A stretch of 5,673 nt of DNA from a virus (Duplodnaviria; Heunggongvirae; Uroviricota; Caudoviricetes), in IMG/VR virus record IMGVR_UViG_2541047120_000010. One strand, 5' to 3'. The notes below the pieces were generated by a model that made no database searches, was not told the DNA's origin, and saw nothing but the letters and a program-made list of their open reading frames with translations. A program made the translations under genes and the position numbers. Of this stretch, positions 2,637 through 2,852 are shown one piece after another (the first letter of the stretch is position 1; every line of letters starts with the position of its first letter).

Positions 2637-2762
2637 CCTCTCGCCCAAAAAAACACATAACCAATTGTATTTATTGGAAAATAAATAGATACAACTCACT
2701 AAACAACGCAATTCTGATCTCTCCTTACATCGCCGAGGCAATACACCCACGCTAAAAAACAA

Positions 2763-2852
2763 TACTATTAAATACAAAGCGTTGTAAAAAAACGCCCCGT
2801 TTTAGAACAAATTGTATTGACCAAGTGAAGTACATATCGTACTATTTAACCA
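2763..2852 (+). promoter_or_regulatory. pL: pL-like early-left promoter with OL-like operator sites
   Basis: Strong sigma70 match: TTGACC (2817-2822), 17-nt spacer, TACTAT (2840-2845), predicted start ~2852, directly upstream of nutL and N. Operator-like dyads around it: TACAA-agcg-TTGTA (2773-2786), ACAAATTGT (2807-2815) with TTGTAT (2812-2817) abutting the -35, and GTAC-N5-GTAC (2830-2842) in the spacer. These use the same ATACAA/TTGTAT half-site seen in the OR region. Confidence 0.65.

Follow-up and report, generated by a model that had tools for sequence, protein, structure and literature searches.

How far does the repressor-binding region of a lambdoid prophage extend upstream of pL, and can a short repeated hexamer be used to trace it? 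The question is raised by a 5,673-bp stretch of viral DNA (IMG/VR record IMGVR_UViG_2541047120_000010; hereafter the window, meaning the whole stretch that was analysed), which is recognised from its sequence as the immunity region of a VT2-Sakai-type lambdoid prophage, of the Shiga toxin (Stx)-converting kind. Here the hexamer ATACAA, its complement TTGTAT and the variant ATACAC recur around the promoters pR and pRM, and again over and upstream of pL. A preliminary description of this DNA had taken the hexamer as the likely operator motif, and had proposed that its copies carry the operator some 150 bp upstream of pL. The account favoured here is that six operators, all of them already known, explain the promoter-proximal copies, and that the copies further upstream are very probably coincidental and not an extension of the operator. 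In VT2-Sakai-type prophages the operators at pL and pR also govern Shiga-toxin expression, through the Q antitermination cascade.

Six operators at pR and pL

Six 17-bp sites are found, three in the right operator region (OR) and three in the left (OL), and these adjoin or overlap promoter elements. At OR, OR1 (AAATACAATATGTACTT; 541–557; 20.6 bits) overlaps the -10 element and spacer of pR and has ATACAA at 543–548 in its left half; OR2 (AAATACACATTGTGCAT; 573–589; 14.1 bits) has ATACAC at 575–580 in its left half; and OR3 (CAGTACAGAGCGTAATA; 599–615; 14.0 bits), which is of a GTAC type and without ATACAA, overlaps the putative pRM. At OL, OL3 (AAATACAAAGCGTTGTA; 2770–2786; 12.0 bits) holds ATACAA at 2772–2777 in its left half, OL2 (TAGAACAAATTGTATTG; 2803–2819; 17.6 bits) holds TTGTAT at 2812–2817 in its right half and overlaps the pL -35 element, and OL1 (AAGTACATATCGTACTA; 2828–2844; 20.6 bits), again of the GTAC type and lacking ATACAA, covers the pL spacer and -10. 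All of these scores come from a matrix trained on the related immunity regions L013, L014 and L015 only, which places the six window sites at ranks one to six, with 12.0–20.6 bits.

The operator set itself is already annotated and published, and is not new. In the record AP005153, OR and OL each carry three annotated putative operators, in addition to putative pR, pRM and pL elements, and this annotation was transferred to the window after a 1-bp correction in a run of A. The run, at 536–542 between the pR -10 and cro, has 6 or 7 A, with the window and the homo-immune phage 2G7b standing against AP005153 and the homo-immune phage ev207, and database coordinates are shifted by 1 because of this difference in length. 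Oligonucleotides for OR1–3 and OL1–3 of VT2-Sa have been published in Table S1 of PMC10742460, and the six window 17-mers are their exact reverse complements; both PMC10742460 and PMC9803871 treat VT2-Sakai as carrying six 17-bp operators. The same 17-mers are identical in sequence and position in VT2-Sakai (Sp5) and in the Stx1 and Stx2-II phages of E. coli O157:H7 Morioka V526 (AP005153/AP005154), from which the operator regions do not differ at all, the window departing from these phages only downstream, where an open reading frame (ORF) of 322 or 340 amino acids replaces the ea10 segment. What the present analysis adds is comparative support for the six known sites and a cleaner definition of their half-site.

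All six sites align in one register, rTAC-N5-GTAy, a 17-bp pseudo-dyad, and the pooled half-site reads w-A-(G/A)-T-A-C-(A/G)-n, in which A5 and C6 alone are invariant. ATACAA corresponds to positions 3–8 of the A variant of this half-site, and the hexamer misses OL1 and OR3 because both use GTAC. As an operator motif it is consequently right in part, being a piece of the half-site, and wrong in part, the real unit being the 17-bp pseudo-dyad and two of the operators going undetected. Read as the A variant of the half-site, ATACAA or ATACAC accounts for four of the nine copies, those in OR1, OR2, OL3 and OL2; for the other five the proposal of a repressor half-site is not supported. Within OL3, the pairing that had been drawn between ATACAA at 2772 and TTGTA at 2782–2786 is in the wrong register. 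The 4-bp-spaced dyad TACAA-AGCG-TTGTA was considered as the OL3 register and rejected, TTGTA becoming TTATA in homo-immune phages, in which the rTAC-N5-GTT register is kept.

Comparison with relatives supports the same six sites from the other direction. A symmetric matrix made from the window sites has these six as its top matches in L012, L013 and L014, whose CI N-terminal domains are 100%, 97% and 93% identical to that of the window, and five of them in L015 (80%), where OL3 is weak, at 7.3 bits. OR1 is kept in L012–L015, OR2 is present as AAATACAnnnnGTGCAT in all of the relatives, and OR3 is likewise supported by their alignment. 2G7b and ev207 share their CI with the window, yet their OL region is only 89% identical to it, and the distribution of differences at OL is informative: across 17 distinct Sakai-type OL regions, substitutions gather in the spacers 2787–2802 and 2822–2827, and spare OL1–3 and the -35 and -10 elements of pL. 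At OR, 2G7b or ev207 depart from the window in columns 558–561 and 606. OL3 and OL2, taken with their flanks (2771–2789 and 2800–2818), form a 19-nt inverted repeat that is 79% complementary with its arms 10 nt apart, so that the two operators mirror one another across a variable spacer.

The layout is that of lambda in several respects: the divergent pR and pRM are served by three operators and pL by three more, each operator is a 17-bp pseudo-dyad, CI joins a helix-turn-helix (HTH) to an S24 autocleavage domain, and t_imm separates the cI operon from OL. It differs in the operators themselves, AAGTACATATCGTACTA in the window bearing no relation to TATCACCGCCAGTGGTA in lambda, and in spacing: neighbouring operator centres are 25 and 33 bp apart at OL and 32 and 26 bp apart at OR, where lambda has about 20–24 bp. 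By analogy with lambda, dimers of CI and Cro would bind the six pseudo-palindromic operators; OL1 would then cover the spacer and -10 of pL, and OL2 its -35, with OL3 placed 33 bp further upstream, and OR1, OR2 and OR3 would play the equivalent part for pR and pRM.

A fifth copy of the hexamer, ATACAA at 563–568, would be the -35 element of pR read on the other strand. On the minus strand this sequence is TTGTAT, 17 bp from the -10 TATTTT (545–540). In relatives 563–568 reads ACACAA, ATGCAA or AAGCAA (TTGTGT, TTGCAT and TTGCTT on the minus strand), a variation of the form TTGnnT in which only TTG..T is kept, and the -10 becomes TATTAT or TATTGT. The putative pR -35 annotated in AP005153 corresponds to window 564–569, 1 bp away. 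Its variation in relatives, and its coincidence to within 1 bp with an annotated promoter element, speak against the use of 563–568 as an operator half-site. An alternative OR2 at 561–577 (AAATACAAGTAAAAATA) was also tried and dropped, as its left half varies and the 17-mer lies outside the top matrix matches.

On the plus strand, the promoter scan places pL at 2817–2845, with TTGACC (2817–2822), a 17-bp spacer and TACTAT, so that the TTGTAT in the right half of OL2 runs into the -35 element. Transcription is placed by homology to start at about 2852, the A of ATCAGCAGGACGC, from alignment with HK542 and lambda, where pL and its transcript start are annotated. Downstream of pL there is a nutL-like element at 2890–2918, recognised by eye and by analogy with the HK542 annotation, that consists of a boxA-like GCTCTTTAA (2891–2899) and a boxB-like hairpin GTCGA-CTC-TCGAC (2906–2918).

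The hexamers upstream of OL3 and the block that holds them

A check of the sequence showed every coordinate in the preliminary description to be correct, including those of TTGTA at 2782–2786 and of a CCAAT/ATTGG dyad at 2661–2677. ATACAA starts at 543, 563, 2689 and 2772 on the plus strand and at 2665 and 2812 on the minus strand, and ATACAC at 575 and 2741; copies that had gone unlisted are ATACAA at 2488–2493 and ATACAC at 2084, 3664 (minus strand) and 3686. The expectation that chance would supply only a few copies was sound, since ATACAA/TTGTAT occurs 7 times in the whole window against 2.81 expected, a count reached by 6 of 200 shuffles. For ATACAC the figures are 5 observed and 1.50 expected (4 of 200 shuffles reach 5), and the window-wide enrichment of the hexamers is modest. 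A stronger signal comes from the clustering: within the 355 bp of the two intergenic regulatory regions there are 6 copies of ATACAA/TTGTAT against 0.67 expected (P(>=6) = 7e-5) under a Markov model that was trained on the same AT-rich regulatory DNA. Concentration in two places accordingly holds for ATACAA/TTGTAT (6 of 7 copies in the 355 bp), but not for ATACAC, three of whose five copies (2084, 3664 and 3686) are outside the clusters. Taken alone, the upstream stretch 2636–2769 has a weak to marginal excess, with 2 ATACAA against 0.22 expected (P = 0.02), or 3 ATACA[A/C] against 0.34 (P = 0.005).

The upstream copies at 2665 and 2689 lie in a non-coding block (2638–2731), C-rich and G-poor on the plus strand, that is directly 3' of the intrinsic terminator t_imm (2608–2637, plus strand). 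The terminator, identified by terminator scan and RNA folding, is made of AACCCGGC and GCCGGGTT, 6 nt apart, and then a T-run. It closes the lysogenic operon cI-orf173, and has homologues in HK542, where it is annotated as Timm, and in lambda, at 35799–35824 (PMC3349717). A distant BLAST search with 2300–2880 found window 2604–2731 to be homologous, at 80–88%, to many hetero-immune phages, including lambda, HK542, mEp234, BP-4795 and 933W. When these were aligned together, the sequence from the terminator stem to about 2731 proved nearly identical in the window, lambda, HK542, mEp234 and BP-4795, and partly so in 933W; TTGTAT 2665 and ATACAA 2689 are both within this common stretch, beyond which the operators are unrelated. 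The lambda segment between t_imm and OL3, the remainder of which we take by our own count to be at about 35715–35790, differs from window 2608–2731 by few substitutions, and ACACATAACCAATTGTATTTATTG.AAAATAAATAGATACAACTCACTAAAC, with both upstream hexamers, is present in the two.

The breadth of this conservation is apparent from an exact scan of viral contigs for the 20-mer CATAACCAATTGTATTTATT, which is present in at least 120 of them. Among the matches listed, 105 contigs had sufficient upstream flank and a pL start that could be recognised within 450 bp, which allowed typing by OL/pL; they comprised 62 of lambda type, 20 of 933W type, 18 of Sakai type, 4 of a further type and 1 of BP-4795 type. 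In these the 20-mer stands 184–208 bp from the pL start ATCAGCAGGACGC, and ATACAA is found at the homologous position in 58 of the 62 lambda-type and 16 of the 18 Sakai-type contigs. On the cI side the neighbours of the block are unrelated, being rexB in lambda, orf173 here and other genes in 2G7b and ev207; the block between t_imm and OL3 is conserved across immunity types far better than its neighbours. Because its sequence is common to at least five OL types, lambda among them, it would not be dictated by this repressor.

The two hexamers form the outer ends of an AT-rich inverted repeat at 2665–2694, with 11-nt arms TTGTATTTATT (2665–2675) and AATAGATACAA (2684–2694) that are 91% complementary and have 8 nt between them. 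Lambda has the same inverted repeat, 933W-type phages have lost one arm through a 12-bp deletion and substitutions, and ev207, with an identical CI, has TTATAT and ATGCAA in place of the hexamers at 2665 and 2689. L013, L014 and L015 are without the block, yet they keep OL1 and OL2, and OL3 is clear in L013 and L014, in which a different terminator follows cI and OL3 starts about 25 bp later; the matrix scan revealed no seventh operator-like site in any of the three. The additional operator that had been suggested at 2665–2694 finds no support, given the mutated hexamers of ev207 and these block-less relatives that keep OL1 and OL2. The flanking CCAAT/ATTGG dyad is indeed present, but is shared only with near-identical VT2-Sakai-type copies; lambda, 2G7b, ev207, mEp234 and L012 do not keep it.

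Further along, ATACAC at 2741–2746 (plus strand) belongs to a semi-conserved C-rich stretch, aligns with CAATGCCCC of lambda, and reads ATACAT in both 2G7b and ev207. The 17-mers around 2689 and 2741 fall outside the best 14–25 matrix matches. The upstream copies therefore lack immunity-type specificity, with the same sequence occurring in lambda-, 933W- and BP-4795-type phages and in one further OL type, and they lack conservation among homo-immune phages, given the mutations in ev207, the ATACAT of 2G7b and ev207, and the missing block of L013–L015. Judged by sequence comparison, the copies at 2665, 2689 and 2741 are outside the operator system, and the ATACAC at 2741 is to be read as no operator; the proposed extension of the operator by about 150 bp upstream of pL fails with them, all three lying in DNA common to hetero-immune phages, lambda included. 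The likeness of the hexamers at 2665 and 2689 to the half-site would be a coincidence of AT-rich sequence.

Certain points weigh against this conclusion, among them an operator-like 17-mer, CATAACCAATTGTATTT, at 2656–2672. It equals OL2 at 13 of 17 positions, scores 10.4–11.4 bits, and comes first or second among the non-operator matches of the window; the independent matrix puts it only 1.7 bits under OL3, and its score falls inside the leave-one-out range of OR2, OR3 and OL3. Conceivably this is a fourth, low-affinity left operator, 147 bp (about 14 helical turns) from OL2, at which CI would add to the OL complex and aid higher-order or looped repression. A match of this kind has a chance expectation of only 0.005–0.01 within 134 bp, and the block-bearing Sakai-type phages mostly keep the 17-mer. 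The accessible literature yielded no measurements of binding by the cognate VT2-Sakai CI; the only electrophoretic mobility shift assays found for these operator oligonucleotides had used lambda CI. The contig sample, moreover, was drawn with a 20-mer that contains TTGTAT and is uninformative on the conservation of that hexamer, for which the unbiased evidence is the distant BLAST search and the multiple alignment. Finally, the roles suggested below for the block, as recombination linker and in loading Rho, are proposed from its conservation and composition.

A fourth operator is nonetheless most improbable. Phages of the lambda, 933W and BP-4795 types and of one further OL type, the repressors of which have other specificities, carry the identical 17-mer, whereas in ev207, with an identical CI, the site is degraded at the critical G of GTA, and L013, L014 and L015 have neither the site nor the block. 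Its score is under those of all six operators, and is level with that of a match at 3380–3396 in a coding region, which is not kept in L012; some 0.2–0.4 matches as good are expected by chance over the 5.7 kb of the window. The likeness of 2656–2672 to an operator is judged to be a chance resemblance within a conserved block, although CI might bind it weakly. The coding-region match, AAGTGCGATTTGTGATT, lies inside ORF 3366–3617 and scores 10.7–11.2 bits with the operator matrices, and given its loss at the equivalent place in L012 it is probably also due to chance.

The A-tract-rich upstream stretch had also been credited with an integration host factor (IHF)- or UP-type element, or with a second promoter, and it could in principle be an activating region for pL, comparable to the IHF site, UP element or pL2 of lambda. 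The near-fixed distance of the block from the pL start in several immunity types (184–208 bp) is consistent with this, as is the alignment of the A-rich 2753–2772 with an A/T-rich stretch just upstream of lambda OL3, which reportedly, from work by Giladi et al., holds an IHF site and a UP element. Such a role is very unlikely, however. There is no match to the IHF consensus WATCAANNNNTTR with one mismatch or fewer in 2600–2870, and the plus strand between t_imm and pL has no promoter-like site, pL being the only plus-strand promoter returned by the scan of 2600–2870. On the minus strand a single consensus-level promoter match (2788–2759) is within chance, 5 such matches having been found against 4.8 expected. 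The hexamers are at -187 to -158, far beyond the position of a UP element (-40 to -60) or of the lambda IHF site (about -86), and the -40 to -60 region of pL is taken by OL2 and a GC-containing spacer, with no UP element there. L013, L014 and L015, in addition, lack the block although their promoter and operators are the same.

Together with the terminator the block may serve as a homology patch for the exchange of accessory cassettes (morons) on the cI side and of OL operators on the other. It may also load Rho, and so stop read-through of the lysogenic operon into pL-N, a possibility suggested because of the strong bias of C over G: the skew of the block exceeds that of any other 100-nt stretch on the plus strand of the window (+0.56, more than 3 standard deviations above the mean), and all five OL types have the bias, with 32–36 C against 9–12 G per 125 nt. 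Folding of the RNA from 2600 to 2770 gives only the terminator and a weak AU-rich hairpin formed by the inverted repeat. No ORF in the block is conserved across OL types; a 97-amino-acid minus-strand ORF (2484–2777) was examined and discarded, being open in the Sakai type only, with stops in every frame in lambda, 933W and others.

A competing view to that of a homology linker, and one compatible with the verdict on the hexamers, makes the block a back-up zone of Rho-dependent termination, or insulator, against leakage of t_imm into pL-N in lysogeny, unrelated to CI. The skew, stronger than in any other 100-nt plus-strand stretch and repeated in five OL types, accords with this, as does the position of an untranslated sequence, without a conserved ORF, directly after a terminator. 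Set against it are evidence consisting of composition, the roughly 25 bp between terminator and OL3 with which L013 and L014 manage, the 12-bp deletion in the block of the 933W type, and the accessible literature, in which nothing on the function of the block, nor any discussion of it, was found, a full-text search for its sequence included. We regard this view as possible, if on balance improbable. A bolder form of it, in which the ~95-bp block (2638–2731) is an undescribed functional cis element of many lambdoid phages, perhaps a Rho-dependent or protein-bound insulator, and in which 2656–2672 might be touched by CI in the VT2-Sakai type, is unlikely. The homology linker, with or without a contribution from Rho, is the role proposed here for the block.

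Gene content and minor features of the window

The assignment of the window to the VT2-Sakai type draws on close matches and on protein domains. Stx-converting phages, among them the Stx1-converting phage of AP005153, Stx2-II, 2851, 1717 and the PA series, match it at 99.5–99.7% identity over 81% of its length, and the segment 2300–2880 is 100% identical to VT2-Sakai and Nil2. Genes run in the order cro, cI, an accessory ORF, the intrinsic terminator, pL, N, cIII, kil, gam and the start of bet. Of these, cro (298–513, minus strand) has an HTH_3 domain (Pfam); cI (from 588 or 630 to 1283, plus strand) has HTH_3 and Peptidase_S24 (Pfam); the accessory ORF, orf173 (1785–2306, plus strand), is on the cI side of the terminator; and N (3035–3307, plus strand) has N_peptide (Pfam) and is followed by cIII, kil, gam and the start of bet.

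The start of cI is given in databases as ATG 588 (231 amino acids). An AAGGA Shine-Dalgarno sequence precedes ATG 630 (217 amino acids), the longer reading from 588 has OR3 and pRM inside it, and in that reading both differences between the CI proteins of 2G7b and the window are within the first 12 codons. The true start is probably 630, or 624.

An ORF from 3739 or 3793 to 4761, encoding 340 or 322 amino acids, is very rich in Glu, Ala, Lys and Arg, and coiled-coil-like; it matches phrog_1376 and phrog_21365 (function unknown), and stands where the closest Stx phages have the ea10 segment, a replacement that leaves 19% of the window without cover by those phages. A search of the whole window against Rfam at E<=1 gave no match. 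Two of the unlisted ATACAC copies, 3664 (minus strand) and 3686 (plus strand), are in the arms of a strong hairpin, GUGUAUUCAUUC...GAGUGAAUACAC (3662–3693), after which comes a terminator-like hairpin with a T-run at 3754–3781; the RNA fold of 3640–3790 has a z-score of -6.3, and within the pL operon the two hairpins may make up a cluster of structured or terminator elements.

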